Origin: a virus
IMG/VR virus record: IMGVR_UViG_3300022602_000067
Span: 17,013 to 81,012 of that record
DNA: 64,000 nucleotides
Strand: one strand, 5' to 3'
This document shows positions 18,653-62,267 of this stretch, one piece after another. The number at the start of each line of letters is the position of its first letter. The first letter of the stretch is position 1. Made by a program: the position numbers and the translations under genes. The notes below the pieces were generated by a model. The model saw only the letters and a list, made by a program, of their open reading frames with translations. It searched no databases and had not been told where the DNA came from.

Positions 18653-18702
18653 ACTATTATTTATCGAAATAATAAACTACGCACTTAATGGACAATCATA
18701 AT

Positions 18703-19371: not shown

Positions 19372-22300
19372 TTATTTTCCACCAAGGCCTTTGATGGCTC
19401 CAGTGTTTTCTAGACGCAATGGAATATAGATAAATTCAACTGCCTTCACTGGTTCAATGGCTATGTCAACATGCAGTTCACTTGCGTCAATTCTAGCCGG
19501 TGTATTGTTACTTGTATCGCATACAACCAAGAAATCATACAATGCACGTTGCGCTGTTAATTGTAATAACAATGCTTCAATTTGTTGTTTGATCTGATTA
19601 CGTGTGATAGTATCATTTGGTTCAAAAATGTATGGTTTAGCTATCTTGTTCAATTGATAACGTAGATAAATTACTAAACGTGCAACATTAATACGATCTA
19701 AACTGCTAGCAACTAACTGACGTGTATACTGTCCGTATGCAACCAGACCTGTACCTGCAAGATATGTAATTGGATTTACATGTACGCCTGCTAGTGTATC
19801 ACGTTGTCCTTGGTTAAGAGCAACTGTATAGAACTCCCCAGTGTTTACATCAACGTAACCAACTGAACTAGCATTTGTCACACCGCCACGACGTACACCA
19901 GCTGGTGCAAACCATGGATAAGAAACGTTGTCGCTTAGAGCGATTGTACGCAACATGATGTGACTTGGAGGAACTACAATATCATTACCTAATAAATCTT
20001 GTGAGTAACCCCATGGATAATATATTGCTGAGTAAGCATCTGTAAATATTAATCCGGTAGGACCGTCAACTGCCGCACCCTTTGTATTGTTACCCCAGTT
20101 GCTTAATGTAGTTGCGTCTGGAGTTAAGTGCGCTGGTGTATCATGCACTATAAATGCTGACAGACCGTTGTCATTGTTCAATCCAACAAGTGGACTTGCT
20201 ACTTCTAAATAACCTGGGCAACTTAACAAGTTGAAAATAACTGTGTCTGGTTGACGAATATTTTGATTGCCTTCAATAGTAGCTGTAAGAGCTTGTACAA
20301 CTACAGCACGTTGAGCGGCAGGACCGAAACGTCCAACACCAAACGTATCATTGGCAGCGGAAGAAACCCATGCATCTGGATAATAGTTAGTCATCAACTG
20401 ACCTGCTCCGATTGGATATGTACCGCCATTGTATTGCAAATTGTAAGTTTGTGTATTCACATAACCAGAAACATAGTGTTTAACATTATAATCGCTACGA
20501 CGTAGGTTAAACAATAGAGTGCCTTTTGGATAAAGTGCAGGACTTGGACAATCAAAGTCTACATAACTGCTTAGAAGTAAGCTAGCGATAGATGTAGGTG
20601 TTCCTGCACCAGTTTGTACGTTACTGTTAGAAGAATTATCTACCCAACGTGCATCAGCAAACACAATGCCACTTCCTGTTGTATGATCTTGGTTGTTTAC
20701 TAATATCCACTTGGCTGTTACACTATTATACTTAAAGATTTGTGGAAAACTAGCTATAGTAGCTGTGTCAATCCATAGATCACCGTTGGCTAATGGAGTA
20801 CCAGCAGCCTGCGTTGTAGGCTGTGTTGCACTTACGATTGGACCTGCTGGGTCAGTGTACAACTGACTACCACTTGCGTAGACTGCACTGTTAATAGCTT
20901 TAGCTTGTGTTGTCAAATAGCCGCGCCATACTTGACCATCATTAATCATAATGTCAAAATTAGCTAAACCACTGTTGTACCATAGTGTGCCATTTGCTGG
21001 GAATGTTGTTGGTGGTGTTGCACTTGCTGTAGCAATACCGTTACCTGTAGTTCCAATAGTGCTTGACCAGTTACTTGAGATATAAGTTGTTGAACTTGCG
21101 CCGCTAGCACCGTCAATCTTTGGAGCTGTGTAGTAGAAATTAGTTGTTGTTCCAGCAGTAAAGATCTTGCTTAATGGCGTTCCTGTACCATCTGTAAACA
21201 CAATATCGCCACCAGCAAGGTGAGTAATTGTAATACTGTTATTGGAATTTACTGTAGCCATTATCAACGGATCACTTACTGCGGCTGTCAATGCAGTTAA
21301 TAGTGTTGTAGCATCACTAGTAGCGGCTACGGCAGTGAATGATACTGTAAATTGTGTACCCAATGTAGCTGAACCAATTTGACTAGCTTGAACAGTAAAT
21401 GTATAGCTACCTGCTGTGAATGTACTAGCACTGATCGCACTAGATGTTACACTTGTTGGTCCGATAGCACTGCGATAGTAGATCTTCCAATCTGCGTATT
21501 GTGGAGTTTGCTCATCGTCATTATATTTTACATATAGTGTATCAAGAGCTAGGTTTATACCACCACCTGTTGGATCCAGTGCTGCCAAAGCCGCATAGTT
21601 GCTAGAATATAAAGGAGCATTTTGTGTTTGCCAACTGCTGGTTGTTGAATTGTATTGCTGGATTTGCCAGCTTGAACCCAAATTAACTGCTGTTGTTTTA
21701 ACCCATACAGATCCTGTAGGAGCACCGCTAGTTACAATACCACCTGTATAACCATAACTAGGAATACTAGTATGTGGACTCATTACAAACTGTGGACACT
21801 GATATGTAACTGATGACAAACCAACTTTAGCTACAGTTGTACCTGATAGCGTAATACTACCTGCTGGATTAGCGCCATTTGTAGTTGTACCGTTAGAATA
21901 TAAATTCAAATAACCGTTAATTGCAGCCGCTGTAACACCAGTTGCTGAACCAGCAGTAATAGCAGTTGCTAAAGCTGAAACTGTTGAATAACCTGTGAAT
22001 GTTGTTCCGTTAATAACTATACTATCGCCTGTTACTGTAACTGTGAATGATACTGGACTACCGCTAGTACCAACGTTACCTGTAACTGCTTGACTTAACA
22101 CATAAACACCTGTACTACCAGTAGTACCGCTCGATTGACTAGCGATTGTAGTACCTGCTGTGATGCCGCCAGTTCCCGAAGTAAGCGTAGCACCAACTGT
22201 TATAGTACCTGTTGGAGTTGAAGTTACTGTTAGGGTTGTACCTGTAGCATATCCGTTAAATGTATAAACGCTACCTGCAATAAGAGTCGGGTTAGCTACC

Positions 22301-23022
22301 GTGCCTACTGCTGTTGCACGACTAGCAATCCAATTTGGAGTACCAACTTGAACCCATGTACCGGCTGGTGTACTGGTAAGTCCTTTTTTGTAGTACAACT
22401 TGTTAAGAGTCGTTAGTGCTACGACTGCATAATCACCTTGTTGTCCAAAACTTGGTAATGGAACATAGGTGCTAGAATTTACATAAGCTGAATTAGTAAT
22501 AACTGATAGATTTCCGATTGAAGATTGTTCAATAAAGCTCTGTCCGTTAGTTGCTGTTGCTACGTTACCATTCCATTCAAATACACCGAACATAGTTGTT
22601 GCTGTGTTAAACCAGAATGTACCACCTGTTGGTGCGCCTGTTGGAATTGTCGGTGTTCCGATAAGTTGACTTGTATCTACGTTAGCACGTACAACGTATG
22701 CACGACTGCTTACTCCTAGGAAACTATAAGCGGCTTGTAGACCATATTCATTTAGTTCGCCTGCATTGTAAGGATTGTTTTCAGCGTCAGTTTGGAAATA
22801 TGGAATACCAAAAGTATTGCCAAGATCCATTTGACTTGTTAATAAGTATACAGTTCCAGCATTAGCTGTTAGTGTGCCTGGAGCAATTCCTGTTCCAGAT
22901 GAATTCATTTTGTTCGCTTGAGTAGCGACTATAATTAAGGGTACGGTTCCAGGAGCCGCCGGTGTATAGAACGATTCGTCTACTACTGTTACGCTTACGC
23001 CTGGGGAACTAAGTTGAGCCAT
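19372..23022 (-). CDS. gp18: tail sheath protein (gp18-like) with large insertions
   Basis: LSSPGVSVTVVDES N-terminus; PWFAPAG..RG, LDRINVARL, FEPND, IEPVKAVEFIYI. Confidence 0.92.
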   Translation of the reverse strand: MAQLSSPGVSVTVVDESFYTPAAPGTVPLIIVATQANKMNSSGTGIAPGTLTANAGTVYLLTSQMDLGNTFGIPYFQTDAENNPYNAGELNEYGLQAAYSFLGVSSRAYVVRANVDTSQLIGTPTIPTGAPTGGTFWFNTATTMFGVFEWNGNVATATNGQSFIEQSSIGNLSVITNSAYVNSSTYVPLPSFGQQGDYAVVALTTLNKLYYKKGLTSTPAGTWVQVGTPNWIASRATAVGTVANPTLIAGSVYTFNGYATGTTLTVTSTPTGTITVGATLTSGTGGITAGTTIASQSSGTTGSTGVYVLSQAVTGNVGTSGSPVSFTVTVTGDSIVINGTTFTGYSTVSALATAITAGSATGVTAAAINGYLNLYSNGTTTNGANPAGSITLSGTTVAKVGLSSVTYQCPQFVMSPHTSIPSYGYTGGIVTSGAPTGSVWVKTTAVNLGSSWQIQQYNSTTSSWQTQNAPLYSSNYAALAALDPTGGGINLALDTLYVKYNDDEQTPQYADWKIYYRSAIGPTSVTSSAISASTFTAGSYTFTVQASQIGSATLGTQFTVSFTAVAATSDATTLLTALTAAVSDPLIMATVNSNNSITITHLAGGDIVFTDGTGTPLSKIFTAGTTTNFYYTAPKIDGASGASSTTYISSNWSSTIGTTGNGIATASATPPTTFPANGTLWYNSGLANFDIMINDGQVWRGYLTTQAKAINSAVYASGSQLYTDPAGPIVSATQPTTQAAGTPLANGDLWIDTATIASFPQIFKYNSVTAKWILVNNQDHTTGSGIVFADARWVDNSSNSNVQTGAGTPTSIASLLLSSYVDFDCPSPALYPKGTLLFNLRRSDYNVKHYVSGYVNTQTYNLQYNGGTYPIGAGQLMTNYYPDAWVSSAANDTFGVGRFGPAAQRAVVVQALTATIEGNQNIRQPDTVIFNLLSCPGYLEVASPLVGLNNDNGLSAFIVHDTPAHLTPDATTLSNWGNNTKGAAVDGPTGLIFTDAYSAIYYPWGYSQDLLGNDIVVPPSHIMLRTIALSDNVSYPWFAPAGVRRGGVTNASSVGYVDVNTGEFYTVALNQGQRDTLAGVHVNPITYLAGTGLVAYGQYTRQLVASSLDRINVARLVIYLRYQLNKIAKPYIFEPNDTITRNQIKQQIEALLLQLTAQRALYDFLVVCDTSNNTPARIDASELHVDIAIEPVKAVEFIYIPLRLENTGAIKGLGGK

Positions 23023-44502: not shown

Positions 44503-47028
44503 TTAATCGCCGACTAAGCTGTGCATTGTATATCTTGGTAGTGTATAGTTATTGCTGGTACTAGTAATCTGTCTGAATCTCCACAACCAATTCAGTTGTC
44601 CTTGCACACTATTTGTACTTCCAATACTACTTGCACTACCTGGAGTTGTTCCGTCACCTCCGCAGAATAACACTTGTCCATCGTCCGTCATAAACGCCGA
44701 TATGTCATTACCGCCCTGTAGTCCAAATCCCATGATAGCATTAATACGTGTATTACTTGGTGTACGTAACGGCCAATAATGATATTGTCCGCCTGTTTCA
44801 GGATCTTGTGTAGGATCATTAACAGCTACAGCTATCGATTTACCTGCATAACCTAAGCTCAAACTACCATAGTTATTATAACCTTGTCCCCAGACACGAC
44901 CATTTTCGTCCAGCATAACTATAGTGAAATAGCCCTGATTTCCTGAACCTATGTAGCCTGCTTCATTGTTTGTGATGGCTACAACGTTTCTTGGGCCGCG
45001 AATTAATGTCCACGGGCCAGTTACACCAGTTCCGCCTGTCGTGTAAGCATTAGTCTGACTGCTGATAGTATTATAGGTATTATCTCCCATACCGTATGTT
45101 AATCCTGTATCTTTTTCACGAATAAACACATTATTAGAATATGTATCACCACCGATTATCCAGAAGTTATCAACCTGTTTAATATTATAATTGGTAGTCA
45201 TATATTTGGTGAATCTATTAACTACCTGTCCTTGAGTGCTTGTCTGGCTACCAGCTGGAGTATAGAATGGTTCTGTTGGGCTTTGTCCGATAGGAAATAC
45301 ACCTGCTCCAAATAAGCTACCATCATTAGTTAAGATCATTACAAATCTCTGTAACGGTGTATTAGGCGTAGTTTGACTATGAGCAAAACTCATTTTCTTG
45401 ATACCACCGTATTTTCTAAAGTCAAATGGTACACGAGTAGGTAGCAAACGTTGGTTACCATATGTTAAACCATACTGACCGCCCATACCAAGTTCGCCTG
45501 AATAATCAGTGCCCCATCCCCATAACTCGCCGTCTTCGTCTAGTGCCAGGCATGATCCATAGTCACCACCAAAGCATATAAAATCGACTATTTTCTTATT
45601 GTCAAAATAAGATGCTGGAATACGTATCGGTGAAGTCTGGCTTACACCCGACGTACCGGTACTGTTAGGATTCGTTGTTGCGTTAGTACTACCTAGACCT
45701 AATTGACTGTAAATGTTGTTGCCCCAAGCCCACATACTGCCATCATTACCAATAGCAAACCACGAAGGATCAATAGAACCACTACCCGGATACTGCATAC
45801 CAACTGTGGTAGCATCTACCTTTATAATTTTAGTTTGGTTAAAACTACGTGGCCATGTTTCGCCTATCCAGCCAGTAGTACCTAAGTTTGTTACACGAGT
45901 TGTACAGTTATATTGGCTAGTGCTTCCGTTTCCTGCCATTCCGTTACTGTTGTTATATCCCGAATAATAAACTTCTCCGTTGTTAAACACCCAGCAACTC
46001 GAATTGTATGTGCGTACCCACTGGATGCATCTTGGACTTAGTCCGTCTGGAGTAGGTAACCAGGCATTGGCTAATACACCTAAACCAAGACCTGTTTGGT
46101 TATCAGTTGAACGTAACCAATCTACAAATGTAAAACTACTAGCTTGCCAACTTGCTACCCAATCTCTAACGCCACGCCCAGCAGTATTAAGGCTAGTCGC
46201 AGGTCCTGGGGAATAATTAAATCCACAACTGTAAGGAACACCATCTGCTCCGATGTATTGTACACTATTACCGTCTGATATTGTTGGATTTGGATAATCA
46301 CCATTATTACGTGTCCAACCTAGAGGTTGGTGATTTGGAAATACCGCACCGTACAAACGACGTGAATCTCTGTTAGGGTTTGTAAATATGCGAACCCAAT
46401 ATGTAGGATCTTCGGGATGTGTGTTACGCACAGGAGCAAAGTTAATATTAACTGTTGGAGCTGTCTGATAACCTATTCCTGGGTTTGTTATAACAATGTT
46501 AACCACTGAGCCGTTGGCCACTGTAGCATAACCAGACGCACCAAAACTACCACGCATGCTATCAAATCCAAATGTTATTAGTGGAGCTTGGCTATAACCA
46601 ATACCACCATTAGTAACTGTAACTGATACAATACTACCTTGACCGTTTATTGTAGCAGTAGCAGTTGCTCCAGAACCCGGAGTACCGGTATACATAAACA
46701 AATCGCCGCCGTAACGCACAACATCGCCATATGTATATACTTTGTGAGGACCCCAACCGCGCTTGAATTGATTACCACGAACAATTAGACGCCAGTATTG
46801 AGTTTCCAGATCAGGACGCTTGTCTGCAAAATAAATTTCAGGTGTACCTGTAAAATAACTTTGTGTATCTACCTGTTTGTCCATGGCGATTTTCCACTCG
46901 TCTGGAATGTTTTGTAAACAGACATAAGCGGCGTTATTGTATTGAACAATATCATTCTTAAGATACAATGTGCTTGATTGCCACTGACCTCTATAGTTAA
47001 ACTTAAATTCTGAGACTGTTATTGCCAT
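44503..47028 (-). CDS. RCC1/BLIP-II-like propeller virion protein with N-terminal CBM5/12-like repeats
   Basis: WAWGNNIYSQLGLG, LWGWG, VWGQGYNNYGSL; RGxW..YxxxDxV repeats. Confidence 0.8.
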   Translation of the reverse strand: MAITVSEFKFNYRGQWQSSTLYLKNDIVQYNNAAYVCLQNIPDEWKIAMDKQVDTQSYFTGTPEIYFADKRPDLETQYWRLIVRGNQFKRGWGPHKVYTYGDVVRYGGDLFMYTGTPGSGATATATINGQGSIVSVTVTNGGIGYSQAPLITFGFDSMRGSFGASGYATVANGSVVNIVITNPGIGYQTAPTVNINFAPVRNTHPEDPTYWVRIFTNPNRDSRRLYGAVFPNHQPLGWTRNNGDYPNPTISDGNSVQYIGADGVPYSCGFNYSPGPATSLNTAGRGVRDWVASWQASSFTFVDWLRSTDNQTGLGLGVLANAWLPTPDGLSPRCIQWVRTYNSSCWVFNNGEVYYSGYNNSNGMAGNGSTSQYNCTTRVTNLGTTGWIGETWPRSFNQTKIIKVDATTVGMQYPGSGSIDPSWFAIGNDGSMWAWGNNIYSQLGLGSTNATTNPNSTGTSGVSQTSPIRIPASYFDNKKIVDFICFGGDYGSCLALDEDGELWGWGTDYSGELGMGGQYGLTYGNQRLLPTRVPFDFRKYGGIKKMSFAHSQTTPNTPLQRFVMILTNDGSLFGAGVFPIGQSPTEPFYTPAGSQTSTQGQVVNRFTKYMTTNYNIKQVDNFWIIGGDTYSNNVFIREKDTGLTYGMGDNTYNTISSQTNAYTTGGTGVTGPWTLIRGPRNVVAITNNEAGYIGSGNQGYFTIVMLDENGRVWGQGYNNYGSLSLGYAGKSIAVAVNDPTQDPETGGQYHYWPLRTPSNTRINAIMGFGLQGGNDISAFMTDDGQVLFCGGDGTTPGSASSIGSTNSVQGQLNWLWRFRQITSTSNNYTLPRYTMHSLVGD

Positions 47029-47042
47029 GGTTTTCTATCCTG

Positions 47043-47441
47043 TTAAAATCCTAGATTACTTAGGTAATCATCATGTTCTTTTTTAAGAGCTGTTAGTATA
47101 TCTATAGTATATTTATCGCCAACTGCTAAGTTAGTTAATACGGTAAACAAATCCATAGGTAGCTTTTCTTTTATATCCTGTGTTTCTTGTTTGATGACCC
47201 ATAGTTGATTTTTAATTAAATTCAAATATTGGGCATCTTCTACATTATCTCGATCATATACACGAACTTGAAAACGTTCATCGTTATCAGCTAAGGCTAC
47301 AACAGTAGGGTCAAAACTGTAAAAGGCTTTATTATCAGCTTCCCCTAAAAATTTATAGCTAACATCAAGGATATATCCTTCCAGATGTTCTGGTTCGATA
47401 TATCCTTCCAATGCTCCTGTAATATGACTTAGTATTTTCAT
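47043..47441 (-). CDS. hypothetical protein, possible fibre chaperone
   Basis: Start MKILSH at 47441 immediately after upstream stop. Confidence 0.65.
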   Translation of the reverse strand: MKILSHITGALEGYIEPEHLEGYILDVSYKFLGEADNKAFYSFDPTVVALADNDERFQVRVYDRDNVEDAQYLNLIKNQLWVIKQETQDIKEKLPMDLFTVLTNLAVGDKYTIDILTALKKEHDDYLSNLGF

Positions 47442-47442
47442 A

Positions 47443-49995
47443 TTATCTTGCGTATTGAATACAAACCGGTGTAAACACTCCACGACCTGTACCAGCCGCA
47501 GTACCATTCGCAGTTGGGCTGTAACCGATAAAACTACCATCTAGTCCTGGACTTTGATTACCACTACCGTATGTACAACCCCATGCATACACTTGTCCAA
47601 TATCGGTTAAGGCAAACATGCCGTGTTGAATGTTAATTGTAGAGCCGTCTGATGTGCCGCCACCTGCTGGTATAATTTGTATCGGTTTAGTACCTGGAAA
47701 GGAGTAAGTAACTACCGGACTATAAGTACTACCAGTTTCATCCACCGGATTGGTACCACCCGAACCACTGGCAATTCCTGGATTACCTAGTTCTCCGTAA
47801 ATGTTATAACCTTGACTAAACACTTTACCGCTGGCTGTTAACCAGGTAATAGTTCTGTTGGTGCCGGCGACATCGACATGCATGTAGATGTCTATAATAT
47901 TAACAAGTCCAACACTACTACCAATTGAGCTAGATAAAGGATTTACACCATTGGTCACAAGAATAGAAGTTGCAGGTTGTTGACTGACTGTGCCATAGCC
48001 GTAGACATTATTTCCGGTAGTACCGCCGCTTGGGTTTGAACCTGCTCCGCAAACATAGGTAGCGCCTGTTACTGTTTTAATAAAATTCAAATAATACCCA
48101 GTGCTTTCACCTGACCATACTAACCAGAAGTTATTGATAGATCCTGCTACACCGACACCTGCTGAAGATTTAGTTAGGGTAGTTCTAGAAGCAACAGTTG
48201 CACTATTGCCGGCTGCACCATAGTTATCATAACCAGTTTGCCATAAAGAGCCGTTACCATCTAAAATCATAAATGTTGCATAAGAACCAGCACCTGCGGC
48301 CTGCCATTTCTGAATACCGTTATTGGCACTTGGAGTCCAAGAAGCTGTGCTCATCTGAACTGGACGATAACGTGTTGTTGTATCGCCTGTACCTAATTGG
48401 CTTACACCATTGTATCCCCATGCATAGATGTTACCTTGAGCTGTACGAGCATAACTACAACCACTACCAGTGGTTCCCATGGCAAGAATATCTACTACAC
48501 GTTCGTTGTTAAAGAAAATGCGTGGTAAACGTTGTGCAGTTGCTAGATATGTAGCTGAGTTATTGGCTGTATTGGTGTTACTGCCTACACCGCATTGTCC
48601 AACATCGTTCTGACCCCATGCCCATACATAACCATATTCATCTAGTGCTAAAACATGATGGTTATCTGTACCTCTTATACCATATGGTGCTGAAATTTTT
48701 ACAATACGAGTATCATTTAATCCTTGTACACGACGTGGCAGTCCTGAACTTATAGTATCACCCGTTCCTAAATATCCGTTAGAATTAGCACCGTTGCCCC
48801 ATACTTCCCCATTGTTAAACAAGTAGTGAGCCCAGTTTATTCCCGCTTCAATTTGTATACATTTTGGCGGCATACCGTCTGGAGTAACTAAACGTCCTGG
48901 TCCGCCGTTATCTCTACTTTGCCACCAATCTATATGATTAAATGTGACTTCCTGCGGATGTGTAAAGGCTGCTCCAGTGGATCCGCCTGTACCGCCGTTA
49001 CCTGATTGACTGTTTGATACACCATGATTATAATTATAACCACAACCATGATTGTAAACACGGCCGCTACGACTGATCCATTTCATTGCTTGATAGTGTT
49101 CGCCTTGCCCTTGATTGCCGTTAGGATAAGGCCAACCGATCGGTCCTTTATTCATCAACCAGCCAATTGAGTTGTGTTCACTTCTGCGATCGCCGTTTAC
49201 CAACAACATCCAAGGTGCGGTTACTGTATTTGTTCCAGTACCAGTTCCTATGTTGGGTGAGCCCGGAAATATATTAATATTATCTGCTAGTGCTAGATAT
49301 GTTGCACCTTGATATTCTACGATATTGTTATAGTAGTACTGTGTACCGGAACTCCATGTACCAATAAATTGATAACCAGTAGTTAATTGATCCCAATATT
49401 GATAACCCCTCCATGCTGGAGAAACAGTCAATACTGGTTTAGGACTTAAACTAGCTCCACCAAATCCAGTATCATTTGCGGAATAATAGTATAGCGATCC
49501 TACAAATCCACTGGATAACACTACATCTAACGAACCATCGATACCAGGTGTTCCTGAATATTGATAAGTGTAACCTGCGTTATTTGAACTTAATTCAACA
49601 CCGCCTGATCCATAAATACCGTCTGGAGTTGTTGATAGTGCAAATCTATGACTCACATTACTTGAATCTTTCTGGAAGAATTTGTAGTGAACGTTAGCAT
49701 ATAAAGTCAAATTAGGTGTTTGGCGTCCATCAATGAAGAAATAGTTGTTACTGCTTACGGTACTAACAGTGATGTTATAGGTGTTGATTTCCTGTGTGTC
49801 GACTGTTTTTGGTAGATAATTTGTACGATCGCGTTTACCTGGGCTGAATTCTGTGCTTGAGCCAGTTCCATGCGCCTGCGTACAGATCCAGATAGCGCCG
49901 TTATAAGCCACAATATCGTTTGGCAAATAGCTACTGCTGGTATTCCATGTACCTCTCCAAAGTTGTTTAATTTTTCCTAAATCTAATGTTGACAT
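47443..49995 (-). CDS. RCC1/BLIP-II-like propeller virion protein
   Basis: VWAWGQNDVGQCG, IYAWGYNGVSQLGTGD; LDLGKIKQLWRGTW N-terminus. Confidence 0.8.
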   Translation of the reverse strand: MSTLDLGKIKQLWRGTWNTSSSYLPNDIVAYNGAIWICTQAHGTGSSTEFSPGKRDRTNYLPKTVDTQEINTYNITVSTVSSNNYFFIDGRQTPNLTLYANVHYKFFQKDSSNVSHRFALSTTPDGIYGSGGVELSSNNAGYTYQYSGTPGIDGSLDVVLSSGFVGSLYYYSANDTGFGGASLSPKPVLTVSPAWRGYQYWDQLTTGYQFIGTWSSGTQYYYNNIVEYQGATYLALADNINIFPGSPNIGTGTGTNTVTAPWMLLVNGDRRSEHNSIGWLMNKGPIGWPYPNGNQGQGEHYQAMKWISRSGRVYNHGCGYNYNHGVSNSQSGNGGTGGSTGAAFTHPQEVTFNHIDWWQSRDNGGPGRLVTPDGMPPKCIQIEAGINWAHYLFNNGEVWGNGANSNGYLGTGDTISSGLPRRVQGLNDTRIVKISAPYGIRGTDNHHVLALDEYGYVWAWGQNDVGQCGVGSNTNTANNSATYLATAQRLPRIFFNNERVVDILAMGTTGSGCSYARTAQGNIYAWGYNGVSQLGTGDTTTRYRPVQMSTASWTPSANNGIQKWQAAGAGSYATFMILDGNGSLWQTGYDNYGAAGNSATVASRTTLTKSSAGVGVAGSINNFWLVWSGESTGYYLNFIKTVTGATYVCGAGSNPSGGTTGNNVYGYGTVSQQPATSILVTNGVNPLSSSIGSSVGLVNIIDIYMHVDVAGTNRTITWLTASGKVFSQGYNIYGELGNPGIASGSGGTNPVDETGSTYSPVVTYSFPGTKPIQIIPAGGGTSDGSTINIQHGMFALTDIGQVYAWGCTYGSGNQSPGLDGSFIGYSPTANGTAAGTGRGVFTPVCIQYAR

Positions 49996-50005
49996 ATTTT
50001 TATCC

Positions 50006-53000
50006 TTAATCAGTTATTGGAGGTGTCATAGTTTCTATGTTTGTACTGGTCCACGATATTTGATATATACCTGCTAGATTAGAACGAACTGTACCGTCTC
50101 CACCGTTGCCTGCAACCATCACACGACCATCGTTGTTTTGCCACATCAACCATTGATAGCCTGCTGAACTATAGCTAAAGCCCATGCAGTTGGCCATATT
50201 TCCTTGCATGCCTGGAGAAGTACGAACTGGTTGCCATACATAACTGTTGATCAATTCGATACCGTTACTTTCACTAGCAAATGTACCACTTATCGCCGGC
50301 ACCATGAATGCTGTTGATTGTGCTCCTGTATAGGCCGCTGTCTGGCTATTAGGGCCTGCTTGGTTACTATAACCAATGCTACCTGTTCCGTAATAGTTGT
50401 TACCAATACTAAAACTCATTCCGTTGTCTAAAACTATAGTAGCTACTATATAAGCGGCGTATCCGCTAAATGCTAGATGTTTTACGTTTACTAGGTTATA
50501 GATACTACCGCCTACGTTTACTTTGCTGATGGTAAATGTACTGCTGTTAGTTGTGCTAGATCCGCTATAACCTAATTGTCCATATCCATTATATCCTGCG
50601 GTCCAGCAATAACCAGTGCTAGAATCTCTCTGCATCATGCTGGCATAAATTCCGCCCGATCCATATAACCACATGTCTTTACAGGTACTACTTGCACTTG
50701 CTCCAGGGCCTCCGCCGACTACAGTCCAGTTTGCCAGGGTAGATGTTGCCGAACCAGCCCATCCCACTGTACCTTGATATCCTGCACAATAAACTAATCC
50801 TGTACTAGTCATGATGGCCGCACAAGCATAGTTACCAGATGTGTTGTCTAATGTTTGAATTTTTAATACAGATCCAACTGCACCACTACCAAATGTTGAA
50901 CCTGCAGTACCTGCTACGTTAGAAATCTGTTGTGGGCTATAAATGTTAGTACCAGTTACACCGTTACCAAGTTGTCCAGAATTATTTGAGCCCCATACAA
51001 ACAAATTACCGTCTTGAGTCACTGCATAACTCCAGCCGTTAGTTCCTGAACCACAGGCCCAAATAGCCACGACAGATTGCCCAGCTGGTAACAGTGAGGT
51101 AGCAAAACTTACTCTTGGAATCTGTTGTGGTATACTACGGTTGTTAGCTTCAGTTGAGTTTCCTGTTAGAGTGGCTAGACCTAATTGTCCGTTATTGTTG
51201 CTACCCCAAACCCAAACGTTACCGTTTTCATCTAATGCTAGTGTATGTCCGTTACTTGCACCATAACCGCAACCGCCGCTGGTACTAATACGTTTGATAC
51301 GTACACTGCCAAACACATGTCCTGCTGAGTATAATGTACCTGTTCCTGCAGGGCTTGTACCTGTTGGGCTTGTGTTGCTATAAACACTAGCTAGTGTTCC
51401 GCCAACACGTACTGGATATGCAACGTTAGAACTTGCGCCATTACCGTTTTCGCCTTGCGAGCCGCCGCCCCATGCAAATACTTCTCCTGAATTCATAAGA
51501 ACTACGTTACGATCGTAAGATTTTTCCCACTGTATTACACGTGGTAATCCGCCATCGGGTGTGGCATGCACACCACTTTGTCCTTGTATGCTAGTTGAAC
51601 GCCAATAGTCATAAAATGGAAATGTTAAACTATTCATCGCCCATGTAGTTGATCCCGAAGTGGCTTGAGCAGACTGTGGTAAACCTACTGAACCGTTGAC
51701 GTCTGAGCCCCAACTCATTGCTTGACCATTTAGCGCAACGTAACCGCCTGTAGGACTATCTGTTGTATTATGTGTACTACCGTTGTAATATTGTGAAGAG
51801 TTATCAAATGCGATACCTCTGTTTGGCAACACTAGTGATGTATTGTTTTGATTACTGTAAACACCCAAGTTATAAGAACCATACAGCGATTGAGGAGCCG
51901 ATTGTGTTCCTAAAATGCCCTTACGATTTACTGGCAACCAGTAACCAGTATCTATTGGAGTAATAACTGTACCATTACCTGCATTATTATTTGCTGTATG
52001 AGCTGTGATGCAATAGTAAGCCTGAGATACTGTACGACTTAGACTATAGTTACCTGCAATAGATGTTGGAAAAGTTGTTAGTGTTGTAGGAGTATTATAG
52101 ACTACGGTATCTCCAACAGCATAAGTTTGTCCGTTGATCCAATTAGCATTATTGTTAAACAGTTGTGTAAATTGTGTCCAGTATGCGCTACCTACAGCTG
52201 GTATACTTGGTGCAATGCTAGTCCAACTAATGCTACCAGTGGATGTTACTACCGAGTTACTAACTGTGTAAGTTCCTACACCGTTGCCTGCGGCAGCCAC
52301 TGTGATTGTTGCGGTATTAGTCATACTGGTTATTGTACCAGCACTACCGGTCTGTAAAGGAGCGGTAGTTGTATTTGCAAAACTAACAGTGCTAGTAGTG
52401 CAAGCTGTAACTACCCATTGTCCGTTGTAACCAAATGGTGTTAACCCTTGCACAACAATAGTGCTACCAATGGCATACGGCGCTAAATTTTGAAGCGCAA
52501 ATGTAAGTGTTGTTGTTGTACCTGTACCTGTAGCCGCTGTAATTACTAATGGTGCAGTTGATCCTGCGATAACTTGACCTGCTGCCAGTGATCCGTATGC
52601 AATAAAACTAGTACCCGATTGTGAGATTGTACCAGTACTTTGTGATCCAAATGTAAATGCTGTAAAAGTGATAAAGCTATTAGCAATAGCATTTGAATAA
52701 CTTGTCGATAGTGTTAGTGTAGTATTTGACAAGACACTACCAACAAAGTATGTGTTGCCAGCTGTTAATCCACCACCACTGTTACCTGAAACTACTATCT
52801 GTGCTCCTTGAAACAGGTTTTGTGTACTGCTTACTGTAACTGTTGTACCAGCCGCAGTTGAAACAATATTTACTGATTGTGTGATTGGTGTTAATGCCGA
52901 TACAACCAATTGGTTAGCTAACTGAGTTCCAGTGAACTGAGCCATAGTAGTTGGCTGTGTGCATACCCATTGTTGTTGACGATAAGTAACCACATCATTA

Positions 53001-53077
53001 GCGACGTTAGCAATGGATGGGTTATAATCCCCTCTCCAATCAAGTCTTAACTTACCTAAATTTATTGTTTGTGCCAT
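50006..53077 (-). CDS. RCC1/BLIP-II-like propeller virion protein
   Basis: VWVWGSNNNGQLG, LFVWGSNNSGQLGNG; INLGKLRLDWRG N-terminus. Confidence 0.8.
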   Translation of the reverse strand: MAQTINLGKLRLDWRGDYNPSIANVANDVVTYRQQQWVCTQPTTMAQFTGTQLANQLVVSALTPITQSVNIVSTAAGTTVTVSSTQNLFQGAQIVVSGNSGGGLTAGNTYFVGSVLSNTTLTLSTSYSNAIANSFITFTAFTFGSQSTGTISQSGTSFIAYGSLAAGQVIAGSTAPLVITAATGTGTTTTLTFALQNLAPYAIGSTIVVQGLTPFGYNGQWVVTACTTSTVSFANTTTAPLQTGSAGTITSMTNTATITVAAAGNGVGTYTVSNSVVTSTGSISWTSIAPSIPAVGSAYWTQFTQLFNNNANWINGQTYAVGDTVVYNTPTTLTTFPTSIAGNYSLSRTVSQAYYCITAHTANNNAGNGTVITPIDTGYWLPVNRKGILGTQSAPQSLYGSYNLGVYSNQNNTSLVLPNRGIAFDNSSQYYNGSTHNTTDSPTGGYVALNGQAMSWGSDVNGSVGLPQSAQATSGSTTWAMNSLTFPFYDYWRSTSIQGQSGVHATPDGGLPRVIQWEKSYDRNVVLMNSGEVFAWGGGSQGENGNGASSNVAYPVRVGGTLASVYSNTSPTGTSPAGTGTLYSAGHVFGSVRIKRISTSGGCGYGASNGHTLALDENGNVWVWGSNNNGQLGLATLTGNSTEANNRSIPQQIPRVSFATSLLPAGQSVVAIWACGSGTNGWSYAVTQDGNLFVWGSNNSGQLGNGVTGTNIYSPQQISNVAGTAGSTFGSGAVGSVLKIQTLDNTSGNYACAAIMTSTGLVYCAGYQGTVGWAGSATSTLANWTVVGGGPGASASSTCKDMWLYGSGGIYASMMQRDSSTGYCWTAGYNGYGQLGYSGSSTTNSSTFTISKVNVGGSIYNLVNVKHLAFSGYAAYIVATIVLDNGMSFSIGNNYYGTGSIGYSNQAGPNSQTAAYTGAQSTAFMVPAISGTFASESNGIELINSYVWQPVRTSPGMQGNMANCMGFSYSSAGYQWLMWQNNDGRVMVAGNGGDGTVRSNLAGIYQISWTSTNIETMTPPITD

Positions 53078-57734: not shown

Positions 57735-58100
57735 TTATACTATGCTTACATAACTTACAATAGCATCAATACTATTGTTAGCATTTGAAGTTATTAGTAT
57801 TGCTTGATTTGCACTTAAAATTAATTTTTCACTATTTGTTATCAGCTTCAAACTGCTCTGCGGAGCCATCATGATATTTTTAGCAATGTATCCTTGACTA
57901 ACTATGTTGCTGGTATTATTTGTACCATCGCCGTTAGCAGAATAAGAAAATAGTTGAGCGCTTATTTGTACCAAAGTATTGCTAGTATTGGCCAAATTCA
58001 GTCCAATTACAGTATATGTTCCTGCGTTGTTAGTGGACAAAACTGCTGTAGGAACTACTCCTATATTTTGCGTTGTGGTATTTAAGAATGTAGTTGTCAT
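57735..58100 (-). CDS. small beta-sandwich virion protein
   Basis: LANTS...EKLIL motifs; paralog of 62267..62605. Confidence 0.7.
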   Translation of the reverse strand: MTTTFLNTTTQNIGVVPTAVLSTNNAGTYTVIGLNLANTSNTLVQISAQLFSYSANGDGTNNTSNIVSQGYIAKNIMMAPQSSLKLITNSEKLILSANQAILITSNANNSIDAIVSYVSIV

Positions 58101-58103
58101 GTC

Positions 58104-59165
58104 TTATCCAAATATTAAAGCGGCTTCGATTGAGGACGCCTGTGCTTGACTATAAGTGATACCACTGTTAGCAGTACCACCTGCGCTTTGCCAAGCCAAT
58201 GTAGTAGTATTATAACTTTCTACGTACTGAGTATCAGTGTTAAAGCGAATCATGCCTGCTACTCCTGCCGGGCGCTGTGCTGTATTTCCTGTTGGGATAA
58301 CAATACCGTTGGTGCCTTGAAAACTTACATATCCGGTGTCCGTTTCTGTAAAAACAGTATTTGAATTTGATACAGTATTAGTAATTGTATTATTAAAAAT
58401 CCTAAAATTACCAAGTGTAATTCCACCCGATCCGCTAGTGGTTAAATTAATATCAATATCTGCACTGGTAGTAGCGATTGTATTTCCGCTTAGTGTTAGG
58501 TTACCTACATTAATTGTAGTAGCATTTAGCGTAGGAAGTGTTAATGCATTGGCAACATTTAGATTATTGCTGTAGATAGTGTTCCAACGTAAAGTACTGC
58601 TACCTAAATTATATGTGTTTGTTGCACTTGGAATAATATCGCTGTCCACTTCGCCGTTGAACGCGATAGTATCGCCTGCTCCAACATCTCCTAACTGGAT
58701 GTTGCCATCAGCAGTAATTGTTCCAGTAGCATGCAAATTACCATTGATCAGTGTGTTACTGTTTATAGTTACACTACCAGTGCCGCTAGGAGTAATGTTG
58801 ATGTTGGTATTTGTTCCAGTTGCGGCTATAGTGCTCCCGCTGATGGCAAAACTGCCAACATCGATAGTACCTTGGTAAACGACACCAAGTCCGCCATTGG
58901 GAACTAGATTGATTGTGTTATTTGAGCTGGCAATAGTATTGCCGGATACAGTAAATGAGGCCATCTGCGCCTGTGTGTTTACTGTTAAATTTGAAGTTCT
59001 TGTAGTTCCAACTACTTGTAGGTCATTGGTAGGCGCGGCTGTATTGATACCGATACGGCTATTTACAACATCTAAGTAAAGTAAGTTCGTCTCAAAAGCT
59101 AAATTTACTCCGTTACGAAGCAAATTATCCTTTAAGAGCGGACCCGAAATTCGACCAACAGCCAT
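58104..59165 (-). CDS. fibre-like virion protein
   Basis: GRISGPLLKDNLLRNG N-terminus; IPTGNTAQRP..GMIRFNTD; GAGGAG SD. Confidence 0.8.
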   Translation of the reverse strand: MAVGRISGPLLKDNLLRNGVNLAFETNLLYLDVVNSRIGINTAAPTNDLQVVGTTRTSNLTVNTQAQMASFTVSGNTIASSNNTINLVPNGGLGVVYQGTIDVGSFAISGSTIAATGTNTNINITPSGTGSVTINSNTLINGNLHATGTITADGNIQLGDVGAGDTIAFNGEVDSDIIPSATNTYNLGSSTLRWNTIYSNNLNVANALTLPTLNATTINVGNLTLSGNTIATTSADIDINLTTSGSGGITLGNFRIFNNTITNTVSNSNTVFTETDTGYVSFQGTNGIVIPTGNTAQRPAGVAGMIRFNTDTQYVESYNTTTLAWQSAGGTANSGITYSQAQASSIEAALIFG

Positions 59166-59305
59166 TTACGCTCCTCTTGACCCCGTGTTTCACGGTTAAC
59201 CACATTTGGAATCTAGCGTTACCTTTCATCCTCAGCCTTAAGGCTCTTAGCGGGTTTACCACTGGTTAGTATCGTAGAGCTTTTGGTCAAGCTCTACAGT
59301 AATAG
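59166..59305 (-). ncRNA. candidate structured cis-regulatory leader RNA
   Basis: Stems GTAGAGC/GCTCTAC, TAACCA/TGGTTA, AGCC/GGCT, CCGTG/CACGG and loop pairing TTGACC/GGTCAA; downstream of TAAATA 59306-59311. Confidence 0.6.
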
Positions 59306-59325
59306 TATTTAGCTGTTCTGGGTTT

Positions 59326-61236
59326 TTAGCCTAAGATCAGGCTCCAAATTGTATTGAGATCGCTGGCCTGCTGTGCAGTCGCTTGACTGCCGGTCGCTCC
59401 GCTAATATCTTGCCAAGCAGTGCCATTGTAGATTTCTACATAGCCTAAAGCGGCGTTGTAGCGTGTTTGTCCTGTTTTTGGAACAGCAGGTCTATCAGCA
59501 GTTGTACCTGTAGGTATCTGCATAGCGCCAGTGCCTGTGAATTTTACATAACCAATTCCTGTGTTCTTAAACACTAATGGAGTTGACGCACTTTCCGATG
59601 CTATGATTGTACTATTTTCCGCTGTAATTACAAAATGTCCAGACTCTGTCTGAAAATAAGCATTACCTAAATTAGGATTATTAATGCTGTTGCCTGTAAA
59701 CAGTGCAAAACCGTTGAACTTAACTTCACCTGTACCTGTTGGGGTTAATGTTAAATCCGCTACGCTATCGCTAATAGTGTTTCCAGAAATATTAATGTTT
59801 CCACTATTCACTGTAGTAGAAGTGACTGTACTGGTTGTCAGCGCATTAGACAAATTAACATTATTACTCCATACATTATTCCATTCTAACGAGCTAGATC
59901 CAAGATTAAAACTAGCAGTTGAACTATAAGGAGCTCCAGGGTTAGTATATAAACTATTTCCCAACTGATCTGTAAGAGTATTACCTAACTGATCTGTAAG
60001 AAGACTTGTAACAGGAGTTATTGTTGTAGGAGTTGCATACGGAATAATGTCACTATTAACTTCTGCGGGTATAAAAATCGTATTTGACGAATTAGATCCT
60101 AATACAATATTACCATCAAATGTAATATTTCCTGTAGCATGTAACGTTCCATTAACTAAAGTATTGCTGTTAATCTGAGTGATTCCAGCAGTCACACCCT
60201 GGGGACTTACTGAAACATTATCAAGATAAAATCTACCTGCATCATTTCTGATTACAAAACTCAATACATCTGATCCAGTACCTGTTACTGTTGCAGAATA
60301 TTGAGTATAGTTCCATGCTATAGCCGCAGGCGATGAATATGGCACAGCAGGGCCGGCTCCTGATGTAATGCTAATATTTGTTAATTTAACACCATTCCAA
60401 TAAACTGCAAAATCGGCTTCTCCCGACGGTGTAGAAGTAGTTAAACCAAGAATGTTATAGCCATCTTCGGTGGTAATAATTGCAGTATTTTCTGTATCTA
60501 AAAATATATCGTAGACGTTCTCTAAACTGAATGTTAGTGTATAAGTCTGACCGTTAGATGTTGCCAGTGTTTGTGCCAAAGTTGAATAACTTATGCTAGA
60601 AGCCATACTGATGGCATAATTTCCGCTAGTGGCATAAGCTGATCCTCCAACTACGGTCATAGTTGCCACAGATCCGTTAACAGACCATCCTGATAAATCG
60701 CCTGTTTCAAATCCACCATTTACCACAAACTGTGGTGTGGTTGTAGGACTAAAATTAAGAACTGTGTTAATAGGTACAGTTATATTATTTGAATTAAAAC
60801 TAACTTGTCCTCCAGTAAGTGTACCGTTGACTACAATGGTAGGATTACTCGACTGATTAGGGCTAATTATTATTGGTAGATTAAGACTATTTGTAATCTG
60901 GTTTGTAGTAATTGCAAAACTACTATTGATATCTGTTTCGGTATCTACAATAAGGTTATCTGTTGTGGCATTGCTGTTGATATCTAAATCACGGGTAGGA
61001 GTACTATTATTAATACCGACAAAATCTCCGGTAACATTGAGATACAATAAATTGGTTTCAAACGCAATGTCATTACCATTGCGTAGTAAATTATCTGCTA
61101 GTAATGGGCCACTTATCCTACCAAATTCGCGTCCAACTTGAGGACTACCTGCCAGTGGTTGAAAGGTATTGGCAACTGGTTGTTTTGGAAGACTTACACT
61201 TTGTATAGGTCTCTTTGGAGTTATTTTAAGAGCCAT
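59326..61236 (-). CDS. fibre-like virion protein, paralog of 58104..59165 with an inserted CBM4/9-like domain
   Basis: GRISGPLLADNLLRNG; VVNGGFETGDLSGW...FYLDNVSV; IPTGTTADRP. Confidence 0.8.
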   Translation of the reverse strand: MALKITPKRPIQSVSLPKQPVANTFQPLAGSPQVGREFGRISGPLLADNLLRNGNDIAFETNLLYLNVTGDFVGINNSTPTRDLDINSNATTDNLIVDTETDINSSFAITTNQITNSLNLPIIISPNQSSNPTIVVNGTLTGGQVSFNSNNITVPINTVLNFSPTTTPQFVVNGGFETGDLSGWSVNGSVATMTVVGGSAYATSGNYAISMASSISYSTLAQTLATSNGQTYTLTFSLENVYDIFLDTENTAIITTEDGYNILGLTTSTPSGEADFAVYWNGVKLTNISITSGAGPAVPYSSPAAIAWNYTQYSATVTGTGSDVLSFVIRNDAGRFYLDNVSVSPQGVTAGITQINSNTLVNGTLHATGNITFDGNIVLGSNSSNTIFIPAEVNSDIIPYATPTTITPVTSLLTDQLGNTLTDQLGNSLYTNPGAPYSSTASFNLGSSSLEWNNVWSNNVNLSNALTTSTVTSTTVNSGNINISGNTISDSVADLTLTPTGTGEVKFNGFALFTGNSINNPNLGNAYFQTESGHFVITAENSTIIASESASTPLVFKNTGIGYVKFTGTGAMQIPTGTTADRPAVPKTGQTRYNAALGYVEIYNGTAWQDISGATGSQATAQQASDLNTIWSLILG

Positions 61237-61247
61237 TTTGGACTCCT

Positions 61248-62267
61248 TTATTGATCAAAGCCGTTTAAGACTGTGACCACTTTTCCATATGGAACCGGAG
61301 TACTAAACTGCAAATAGTAACCGCCCGATGAAATAGTATTACTGGCTTCTACAAGAGTAAGCGATGAGTTAGTTGCTATGATAGCATTAGTTGTTTTGTT
61401 TAGAGTGATACTGGTCAATACATCAGTAACAGAATCTAATGTATAACTTACTACTGTGGTGCTTGACTGAATACCGGTACCTGTTACTGCGGAACCTACT
61501 AAATTAACAGTTGGATATGTTGCTGTCTTACTAGTGATATTACCAGCAAAAGTCATAGTAGTTGTATACGAACTAGCATAACTTACACTACTAGTTGTAC
61601 AAGCTGTTACAGTAAAATTACCGTTATAACCACTTGGTGTAAATCCTGTTACTACTATAGTAGATCCTACTGCAAACGGTGAGGCATTTTGTGAGGCAAA
61701 TGTTAGTGTTACTGTAGTACCGTTGCCGCTTGCTCCTGTAGCTGTAAGACTGCTGTTCAAATACAAAACATTTGATCCGCTGGCGGTTGCAATACTAGTT
61801 GTGATAGAATAAGTCTCCGACGAGAATGTAGGATTTTGAACTACTACATAGTTTATACTGTTTAATTGTATTACGTTTTCTACTACTACGATTAAGTTCT
61901 GTCCTCCCCATGTTGTACCACTTGCAGAAACACCAGGGGGTGCAGGATTTAATGGACCAAAAATTGTATTCACGCCGTCGCCTGCACCAAGATTTTGTTG
62001 CGTTATAGCAGTAGATTCTTTGAATCGCAGACTTCGCCATACATTTCCTTGATATACTTCGACTTCACCGCTGCCATCAATGTTAGTATTATAGCGCATC
62101 ATTCCATTAACTGGATTAATAGGACGTTGACTAGTATTACCACTTGGCAAAATGACACTGCCTTGATTAACCGGATTCAAAACTACGTTCGTGTCGGTAT
62201 AATCCACATACACACTGGTATGATTAGCAGTTCTGCGATTAATAGTTTGACGTTTTAGATATCTCAT
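61248..62267 (-). CDS. virion structural protein
   Basis: LPSGNTSQRP..GMMRYN; inserted beta modules. Confidence 0.75.
   Translation of the reverse strand: MRYLKRQTINRRTANHTSVYVDYTDTNVVLNPVNQGSVILPSGNTSQRPINPVNGMMRYNTNIDGSGEVEVYQGNVWRSLRFKESTAITQQNLGAGDGVNTIFGPLNPAPPGVSASGTTWGGQNLIVVVENVIQLNSINYVVVQNPTFSSETYSITTSIATASGSNVLYLNSSLTATGASGNGTTVTLTFASQNASPFAVGSTIVVTGFTPSGYNGNFTVTACTTSSVSYASSYTTTMTFAGNITSKTATYPTVNLVGSAVTGTGIQSSTTVVSYTLDSVTDVLTSITLNKTTNAIIATNSSLTLVEASNTISSGGYYLQFSTPVPYGKVVTVLNGFDQ

Follow-up and report, generated by a model that had tools for sequence, protein, structure and literature searches.

What role is played by a 160-nt gap between two fibre genes of a phage is the question raised by one locus in the window, the whole stretch of 64,000 nt analyzed here, taken from an IMG/VR virus record of 81 kb that is rated 23% complete. 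A preliminary description had proposed that the gap holds a pseudoknotted leader RNA of a late fibre gene. The relatives of the locus and the covariation among them support this proposal: the minus strand of the gap codes for a structured 5' leader of the fibre gene, and this RNA is conserved. The parts of the locus are as follows.

58104-59165, minus strand: fibre gene, 353 aa, with the N-terminus MAVGRISGPLL and its ATG at 59163-59165; downstream of the leader
59166-59325, minus strand: gap of 160 nt between the two fibre genes, carrying the leader
59326-61236, minus strand: fibre paralogue, 636 aa; its stop codon is upstream of the leader

Locus and distribution of the leader

Both fibre proteins are assigned to PHROGs families of virion structural or unknown function, and the 353-aa protein has no Pfam family. 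The GRISGPLL block is shared by the 636-aa paralogue, in which it is placed after an N-terminal extension of 36 residues. The neighbouring genes encode tail fibre proteins, a tail sheath of 1216 aa and a tail tube, which indicates a contractile-tailed phage. The gap is the longest only locally; the open reading frame map of the window contains longer gaps of 346 and 216 nt. A G+C content above that of the surroundings was confirmed to a modest extent (0.47 at 59150-59299 versus 0.40-0.45 alongside), although the nearby stretch 59375-59524 reaches 0.49.

No match to 58000-60500 was found among GenBank phages by blastn in distant mode. When the fibre protein was compared with these phages by tblastn, the matches covered only 17-18% of it and belonged to T4-like Synechococcus cyanophages and the Methylophilales phage Melnitz. 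The phages carrying the leader are uncultured, and GenBank phages give partial domain matches only.

Protein-guided retrieval gave 76 viral loci with fibre homologues 33-79% identical to the fibre protein. Directly upstream of the homologue in most of these loci, blastn detected the leader at 68-87% identity, a range to be compared with 43-79% for the fibre proteins downstream. The matches covered most or all of the leader, or formed two blocks where the middle was absent. A 19-nt core pattern, which occurs once in the window, was used for wider collection; the type-1 core pattern was found in at least 120 viral contig stretches. The covariance model R1 was built from 102 unique type-1 leaders (set A1), with the pseudoknot helix left out. 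Weaker matches to R1, of 60-67 bits, lie upstream of more distant fibre homologues and are referred to as type 2 leaders, in which the last hairpin differs from that of type 1. The type-2 pattern was found in at least 120 further viral contig stretches. The two types compare as follows.

Unique stretches: type 1, 116; type 2, 105
TAAATA upstream of the leader: type 1, 115/116; type 2, 97/105
..GRI[ST]G.. gene downstream: type 1, 115/116; type 2, 97/105
P1 hairpin predicted: type 1, 113/116; type 2, 96/105

The remaining 8 stretches of type 2 have a high G+C content and appear to be chance matches. The leader is conserved ahead of the MA[VI]GRISGPLL fibre gene in hundreds of uncultured lake-phage contigs of IMG/VR. 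It appears to be a single-copy element: exactly one match to R1 per source was obtained in 99 of 100 sources (997 kb in total), and one match in each of five records, including those of 356,312 bp (96% complete) and 357,559 bp (100% complete).

Leader lengths range from 112 to 165 nt, and the differences are not multiples of 3, which argues that the region is non-coding. A small open reading frame within it (a 45-aa GTG frame, 59125-59262) was considered and ruled out by this length pattern together with the covariation of the helices.

In prokaryote genomes (596 Gb), 34 matches to the core pattern were obtained where about 35 were expected by chance. None of them passes R1, under which the best scored 24 bits versus 41-127 bits for real members, and these genomes gave no sign of a prophage or host. 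Seventeen sequencing runs, labelled lake water, freshwater, aquatic or metagenome, contain at least half of the sampled words.

Secondary structure and pseudoknot

The elements of the leader are ordered as TAAATA, hairpin P1, an H-type pseudoknot with an expandable loop 3, hairpin P4, GU, GGAG and ATG. Their positions in the window are listed below. Counts marked A2 refer to an alignment of 99 sequences produced by R1, a model without the knot.

59306-59311, minus strand: TAAATA, a T4-type late-promoter-like motif with a putative promoter role
59274-59297, minus strand: P1 hairpin, 9 bp, loop GACCAA, starting about 7 nt past TAAATA
59264-59273, minus strand: linker J1/2, the 3' end of which is a conserved AC in relatives (A97 C2 and C99 in A2) and CC in the window
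59249-59263, minus strand: box 1, comprising the lower P2 stem, L1 and the 5' pseudoknot strand
59261-59263 with 59249-59251, minus strand: lower P2 stem, 3 bp
59258-59260, minus strand: loop L1, GGU, its GG invariant in 99/99 (A2)
59252-59257, minus strand: 5' strand of the pseudoknot, within the P2 hairpin loop
59204-59248, minus strand: loop 3 of the pseudoknot, with optional hairpins P3a and P3b, a conserved 5' A and a conserved 3' AA
59234-59245, minus strand: optional P3a hairpin, AGCC-UUAA-GGCU
59208-59231, minus strand: optional P3b hairpin
59197-59203, minus strand: box 2 (G-u-GGUUA), which forms the 3' pseudoknot strand and lies 23-29 nt upstream of the Shine-Dalgarno sequence
59182-59196, minus strand: P4 hairpin, an A.G closing pair and then CCGUG-AAA-CACGG, abutting the knot
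59180-59181, minus strand: conserved GU directly 3' of P4 (G94/99, T90/99 in A2)
59171-59174, minus strand: Shine-Dalgarno sequence GGAG, nearly invariant in A1

Every sequence element named in the preliminary description was found at its reported place on the minus strand, including GGUCAA (59176-59181) next to GAGGAG; P1, the small middle hairpin and the CCGUG hairpin are real. The 181-nt stretch has a predicted folding energy of -51.7 kcal/mol versus -40.5 +/- 4.0 kcal/mol for shuffled sequences (z -2.79), and 1 of 200 shuffles folded as well. When MAFFT and RNAalifold were applied to A1, only P2 and P4 were found (8 pairs), the other helices being missed because the length of P1 varies. 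Anchor-based parsing and alignment by the covariance model were used instead. Over the whole structure in A2, 89.4% of the cells are paired versus 66.7% in shuffled alignments; the covariation score is 0.410 versus 0.114, a value reached in 0 of 500 shuffles, and slid controls gave at most 0.073. In these comparative data, the helices supported by covariation are P1, the lower stem of P2, the helix of the pseudoknot and P4.

The three pairs of the lower P2 stem occur in A2 as UA84 CG9 AU5 GC1, GC98 CG1 and UG94 UA3. The closing pair of P2 thus takes all four Watson-Crick forms, and the U.G pairs fix the strand. P1 is predicted in 102/102 leaders of A1, with very different stem sequences, and all 9 of its aligned pairs vary on both sides in A2.

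An unbiased mutual-information scan of anchor-parsed columns gave, as its top long-range pair, a supposed bulge base in the 3' strand of P2 and the base two positions before GGUUA (CG72 AU11 GU9 UA7, with 3 misfits). On account of this covarying pair, an H-type pseudoknot between the P2 loop and the GGUU strand was proposed. In it, (u/c)AACC-N of the P2 loop is base-paired to N'-u-GGUU(a/g), a strand that immediately precedes the CCGUG hairpin. The pairs of the knot and their forms in A2 are given below.

59252:59203: CG48 AU28 GU8 GC4 UA3, other 2
59253:59201: CG91 UA3
59254:59200: CG92
59255:59199: AU60 GC18, other 10
59256:59198: AU86 CG1
59257:59197: UA32 CG16, other 36

Five of the six pairs vary on both sides, and 91.1% of the cells of the helix are paired. 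Bases of a hairpin loop are thus joined to a 3' strand with compensatory changes, as in an H-type pseudoknot. The stems also abut: the last base of the knot strand is 59252 and the first of the 3' strand of the lower P2 stem is 59251, and the knot pair 59257:59197 directly adjoins the P4 pair 59196:59182. P4 and P2 may therefore both be stacked coaxially with the knot.

GGUUA is invariant in the type-1 set because it was part of the pattern by which these leaders were fetched. The type-2 leaders were fetched by another pattern, and therefore provide a real test of the knot. Compensatory variants were present among them, namely AGCC/GGCU, UUCGCC/GGCGA and CGCACC/GGUGA, and in five sequences a C-to-U change is accompanied by the matching G-to-A change (..CU/AG..). 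An additional U-A or C-G pair takes the place of the A.A of type 1. An A.C mismatch at one knot pair in about 10-13 type-2 leaders counts against the knot. In a full P2 hairpin the top two pairs, GG with CC, are in competition with the knot; they never vary.

Two extensions of the fold were considered. A pairing of box 1 with box 2 over all 8 nt was rejected, the sixth base of box 2 being a U in 30/102 leaders that clashes with the invariant U of L1; this extended pairing is also not kept in type 2. The bases of a closing helix AC/GU (59264-59265 with 59180-59181) are nearly invariant, with rare exceptions lacking compensation.

The fold proposed in the preliminary description differs from this one. 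It joined the P1 loop UUGACC to GGUCAA at the ribosome-binding site, around a multi-way junction, with UAACCA/UGGUUA as its closing helix. The window allows both pairings, and the enclosing helix appears in its minimum free energy fold, where it rivals the covarying knot for GGUUA. The complementarity of UUGACC and GGUCAA is real, but of 180 leaders the window alone reaches 6 bp or more. Four or more Watson-Crick pairs could form in 29/180, versus 23.0 +/- 3.3 with shuffled partners, and a GACC loop occurs together with a GGUC tail in just 8/180. The enclosing helix requires a C at 59265, which is present in 2/99 aligned leaders (A in 97), so that it is confined to the window and one other sequence; GGUUA covaries with the P2 loop instead. 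Among the leaders no covarying partner of the P1 loop was found, and L1 GG and GGUUA are unchanged in leaders without a GACC loop. The earlier fold therefore has hardly any likelihood left, and the covarying knot, rather than touching the ribosome-binding site, uses other bases 23-29 nt upstream of the Shine-Dalgarno sequence.

A different view of the locus is that it acts at the DNA level only, as a recombination joint for fibre-module swapping or as a promoter or operator, the hairpins being incidental. One DNA run from a lake has a depth of 669-920 at 59031-59272 and of about 34-39 alongside, and contigs link 59314-59321 to varied places in the upstream gene. The rise in depth and the variable joins suggest that the leader lies at a mosaic boundary and is common to many co-occurring phages. 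However, compensatory Watson-Crick and G.U changes in four helices are not explained by recombination or by binding to duplex DNA, and G.U pairs are specific to one strand. A purely DNA-level element is thus most improbable.

Among 99 parsed type-1 leaders, loop 3 measures 7 nt in 59, a single hairpin is inserted in it in 19 and a pair of hairpins in 21; the insertion point of the hairpins is fixed. The window leader belongs to the longest class, and the GGUAACGC motif was found in 4 leaders. The closing pair of P4 occurs in type 1 as AG72 UU24 UA6 and in type 2 as G-C (GC41), and one P4 pair in A2 as CG33 GC12; in type 2 the entire hairpin is replaced by GGGA-CARGA-UCCC. The invariant unpaired bases are the GGU of L1, the AC before P2, the A and AA of loop 3 and the GU past P4.

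Transcript start, ribosome-binding site and proposed function

On the coding strand, 11 of 28 copies of TAAATA fall in intergenic DNA, which makes up 3.6% of the window. In T4, the late promoter TATAAATA is recognized by gp55/gp33 (PMC3014915). By this likeness, TAAATA is probably a late promoter of the T4 type. Several other late genes of the window have TAAATA just 5-10 nt ahead of their ATG, and the long leader of the fibre gene is therefore exceptional in the genome.

T4 late transcripts start about 6 nt past the promoter motif. The commonest distance between TAAATA and P1 is 7 nt, found in 102 of the 209 stretches with P1 (49 of type 1 and 53 of type 2). With the start position taken from T4, P1 would probably form the stem-loop at the very 5' end of the late transcript, and it is on this spacing and this assumed start that a comparison with the 5' stem-loop of the ompA type is based. 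GACC is kept in the loop of 162 of 209 P1 hairpins (85 of type 1 and 77 of type 2). P1 does not have the features of an intrinsic terminator: no U-tract follows it, the window having GAUACUAACC at this place and most relatives GAUAUU.AAC, and it lies downstream of TAAATA. Contigs from three lake metatranscriptome runs fall on 59024-59239 only, with ends, strand and level not given. One RNA-library contig is unbroken from loop 3 via P4 into the fibre gene, although DNA carry-over may account for it. These contigs are therefore taken to speak neither for nor against transcription of the leader.

The distance from P4 to the ATG is 14-20 nt, most commonly 17, with about 3-8 nt between P4/GU and GGAG. 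The Shine-Dalgarno sequence has a predicted unpaired probability above 0.5 in 77/102 leaders. No conserved anti-Shine-Dalgarno partner of the CUCC/UCC type was found in the conserved core of the leaders, and no U-tract follows any leader hairpin. Since the Shine-Dalgarno sequence is mostly open and lacks a conserved partner, control by masking is not evident.

The leader is most likely a cis-acting translational operator or stabilizer. More precisely, we give a probability of about 0.5 to the reading that the knot and P4 act in cis as an operator, recognized by a factor acting in trans, and that P1 is the 5' stabilizer. Transcription late in infection would be driven by TAAATA and leave P1 2-3 nt from the 5' end of the mRNA, which P1 would shield from 5'-end-dependent decay. 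A factor supplied in trans, most likely a protein of the phage or of the host, would bind the knot and P4 and thereby tune initiation at the adjacent Shine-Dalgarno sequence. In this way the operator would set the amount of this single fibre made late in infection. The invariant unpaired bases and the fixed distance from P4 to the start suggest such a reading, and it fits best because the leader, a single-copy element with one target, combines a rigid stem stack with invariant unpaired bases, a hairpin loop that is conserved and a fixed distance to the start. The P4 loop, which is wholly different in the two types, counts against it; either P4 is therefore not the recognition site, or the partner is specific to the type. 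The fibre protein and the products of the neighbouring genes contain no nucleic-acid-binding or RNA-binding domain in Pfam or PHROGs, and so offer no candidate for the factor.

P1 and the knot may instead act constitutively, by stabilizing the mRNA through a block to RNase or by keeping the Shine-Dalgarno sequence open, without any regulator or ligand. The position of P1 close behind TAAATA, the predicted openness of the Shine-Dalgarno sequence, the failure to find an anti-Shine-Dalgarno partner or a terminator, and the single copy ahead of one highly conserved fibre gene are all consistent with this. However, a 5' hairpin alone would suffice as a stabilizer, and neither the GACC loop of P1 nor the invariant unpaired bases (L1 GGU, AC, AA and GU) would be explained. 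We therefore consider a purely constitutive leader rather unlikely.

Relation to known RNAs and significance

Among phage leaders, that of gene 32 of T4 and T2 offers the closest functional comparison for the operator reading. According to PMC3014915, it is a translational operator that forms an H-type pseudoknot of two coaxially stacked helices, located 67 nt upstream and followed by an unstructured A+U-rich tract over the ribosome-binding site. Its product is a single-stranded DNA- and RNA-binding protein under autogenous control (PMC3014915). The fibre leader resembles it in being a phage 5' leader with an H-type knot upstream of its ribosome-binding site that is conserved among relatives. 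It differs in having the G+C-rich P4 after the knot in place of the A+U-rich tract described there, and its hairpin ends 3-8 nt from the Shine-Dalgarno sequence. The gene regulated here encodes a virion fibre with no known RNA-binding domain, and its promoter is probably late. By eye, the gene 32 sequence shows no likeness to the fibre leader.

The rpsO (S15) operator of E. coli, also mentioned in PMC3014915, contains a protein-bound pseudoknot next to the Shine-Dalgarno sequence, and it shares with the fibre leader a knot in a translational operator at this site. It serves the feedback of a cellular ribosomal protein, and its knot overlaps the initiation region, whereas the Shine-Dalgarno sequence and AUG of the fibre leader are outside the knot. 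The fibre leader may thus be akin to the gene 32 and rpsO operators in its working, while being a member of neither.

No match to any family was obtained over the whole window at the gathering thresholds of Rfam 15, and the preliminary description was right in recognizing none. At E up to 10, 58900-59600 gave two chance-level matches only: CRISPR-DR51 (18.9 bits versus a gathering threshold of 45) and, on the opposite strand, NEAT1_2 (15.1 bits versus 60). Rfam 15 includes models of the pistol, hatchet, twister, twister-sister, hammerhead and HDV-like ribozymes. The fibre leader is a structured 5' leader with a pseudoknot that is absent from Rfam.

It is unlikely, on the whole, that a new class of RNA, either a riboswitch or a self-cleaving ribozyme cutting at the GU, has its sensor or its catalytic core in the knot and P4. 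If so, a riboswitch might tune the fibre output of a giant phage to a host or phage metabolite, or a ribozyme might trim the leader; in either case the element would occur once per genome of about 357 kb and be widespread in lake viromes.

As a riboswitch, the knot domain would be an aptamer that recognizes an ion or a small molecule, and its ligand-dependent folding near the Shine-Dalgarno sequence would modulate initiation. An H-type pseudoknot with hairpins in loop 3, highly conserved junction bases, a covarying domain suitable for an aptamer and a fixed spacing to the start are in keeping with this. PreQ1-II, preQ1-III and SAM-II/V riboswitches are found in 5' UTRs and have a hairpin loop paired downstream and an A-rich loop 3 able to carry a hairpin. 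Their general layout is that of the fibre leader, but it has no match to their Rfam models, nor to any riboswitch even at E up to 10. In these riboswitches the Shine-Dalgarno sequence is in or next to the knot strand, whereas in the fibre leader it is 23-29 nt downstream, and the gene contexts are unrelated. With no conserved alternative pairing to the Shine-Dalgarno sequence and no terminator, the classical expression platform is also missing; moreover, the gene encodes a virion fibre, neither metabolic nor transport, and a genome of about 357 kb has one copy. A riboswitch is therefore quite doubtful.

In the pistol ribozyme, which is often found in phage DNA, there is a hairpin-loop pseudoknot, together with an A-rich linker and a hairpin that is followed by a conserved G-U. 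The fibre leader has the same general order, with a hairpin-loop knot, an A-rich linker, the knot strand, a hairpin and GU. If it worked as a self-cleaving ribozyme or as an element for RNase processing, the leader would be cut, for instance at the GU past P4, and a fibre mRNA with a short leader would be freed; the transcripts cut would be read-through or promoter-proximal ones. The compact knotted fold, the invariant unpaired bases, the conserved GU right after a hairpin and the location between two genes of a phage structural operon agree with such cleavage. Against it, no Rfam match was obtained to pistol, hatchet, twister, twister-sister, hammerhead or HDV, no helix equivalent to the closing P2 of pistol was seen by eye, and the RNA-library contig described above runs unbroken past the proposed site, although partial cleavage or DNA carry-over is compatible with it. 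Cleavage of the leader thus seems very unlikely.

Among the late mRNAs of phages, a structured leader with a proven knot is a rare feature. The fibre leader would provide a second, unrelated knot-bearing leader, with compensatory changes in four helices, and it occurs in hundreds of uncultured lake-phage contigs, ahead of the same fibre gene and once per genome. With its 105-150 nt and clear mutants, it is a defined RNA on which to test how giant phages set the dose of one fibre. The leader is also a clean candidate family for Rfam, and if it were to bind a ligand or cleave itself, it would represent a new class of riboswitch or ribozyme.

No paper on the fibre leader was found in literature searches. 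Fremin et al. 2023 (PMC10690425) reported, in the main text, 8,495 unnamed candidate structured RNAs from IMG/VR intergenic regions, of which 879 lie no more than 25 bp upstream of a gene. That main text mentions tail or fibre genes 0 times. Both the IMG/VR source and the kind of object are those of the fibre leader, which may well be already among the unnamed DNAVirus_N entries.

Fibre paralogues and the mosaic boundary

Two fibre paralogues lie in tandem and have the GRISGPLL N-terminal block in common:

59326-61236, minus strand, fibre paralogue of 636 aa, GRISGPLL N-terminal block
61248-62267, minus strand, fibre paralogue, GRISGPLL N-terminal block

The conserved structured 5' leader RNA is present only before the last paralogue of the series, the 353-aa fibre gene at 58104-59165. 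Sub-threshold matches to DUF642/CBM_4_9 were found at residues 171-239 of the 636-aa paralogue, the fibre gene directly upstream of the leader. In one lake DNA run, contig depth over 59031-59272, which corresponds to the leader and the first ~45 codons, was ~20x that of the flanks, and positions 59314-59321 were joined by contigs to three different sites in the upstream fibre gene. Thus, 59031-59272 and 59314-59321 mark a mosaic boundary common to many co-occurring phages.

Variation within the leader

The leaders fall into two types that differ in the last hairpin. In both, the loop of the 5' hairpin P1 (59283-59288 in the window) tends to keep GACC, which was retained in 162 of the 209 predicted P1 hairpins. 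No covarying partner for this GACC was found in the leader alignments, and the rest of the motif is unaltered in leaders whose P1 loop differs from it.

In the H-type pseudoknot of ~13 type-2 leaders, such as those at the related loci L297, L310, L198, and L255, UUAACC is paired with GGCUA, a combination from which an A.C mismatch within the knot arises. A G.U intermediate was seen in none of these ~13 leaders. Possible explanations are an A+.C wobble and a relaxed constraint at this position.

TAAATA motifs close to start codons

In several minus-strand genes of the window (e.g. at 18658, 14239, and 27395), the ATG is located ~5-10 nt after TAAATA, a T4-type late-promoter-like motif. In T4, transcription starts a few nucleotides downstream of the late-promoter motif; if the same spacing applies here, the late mRNAs of such genes would be leaderless or nearly so. 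An SD-like motif was found in only 22 of 44 genes.

Other genes of the structural region

The tail sheath protein was matched to phrog_10581 over its full length, and its 1216 aa seem large for a tail sheath:

19372-23022, minus strand, tail sheath protein of 1216 aa

Three large consecutive minus-strand ORFs of 841, 850, and 1023 aa (44503-53077), inside the structural region, match PHROGs for RCC1-like repeats, annotated as 'regulator of chromosome condensation'.
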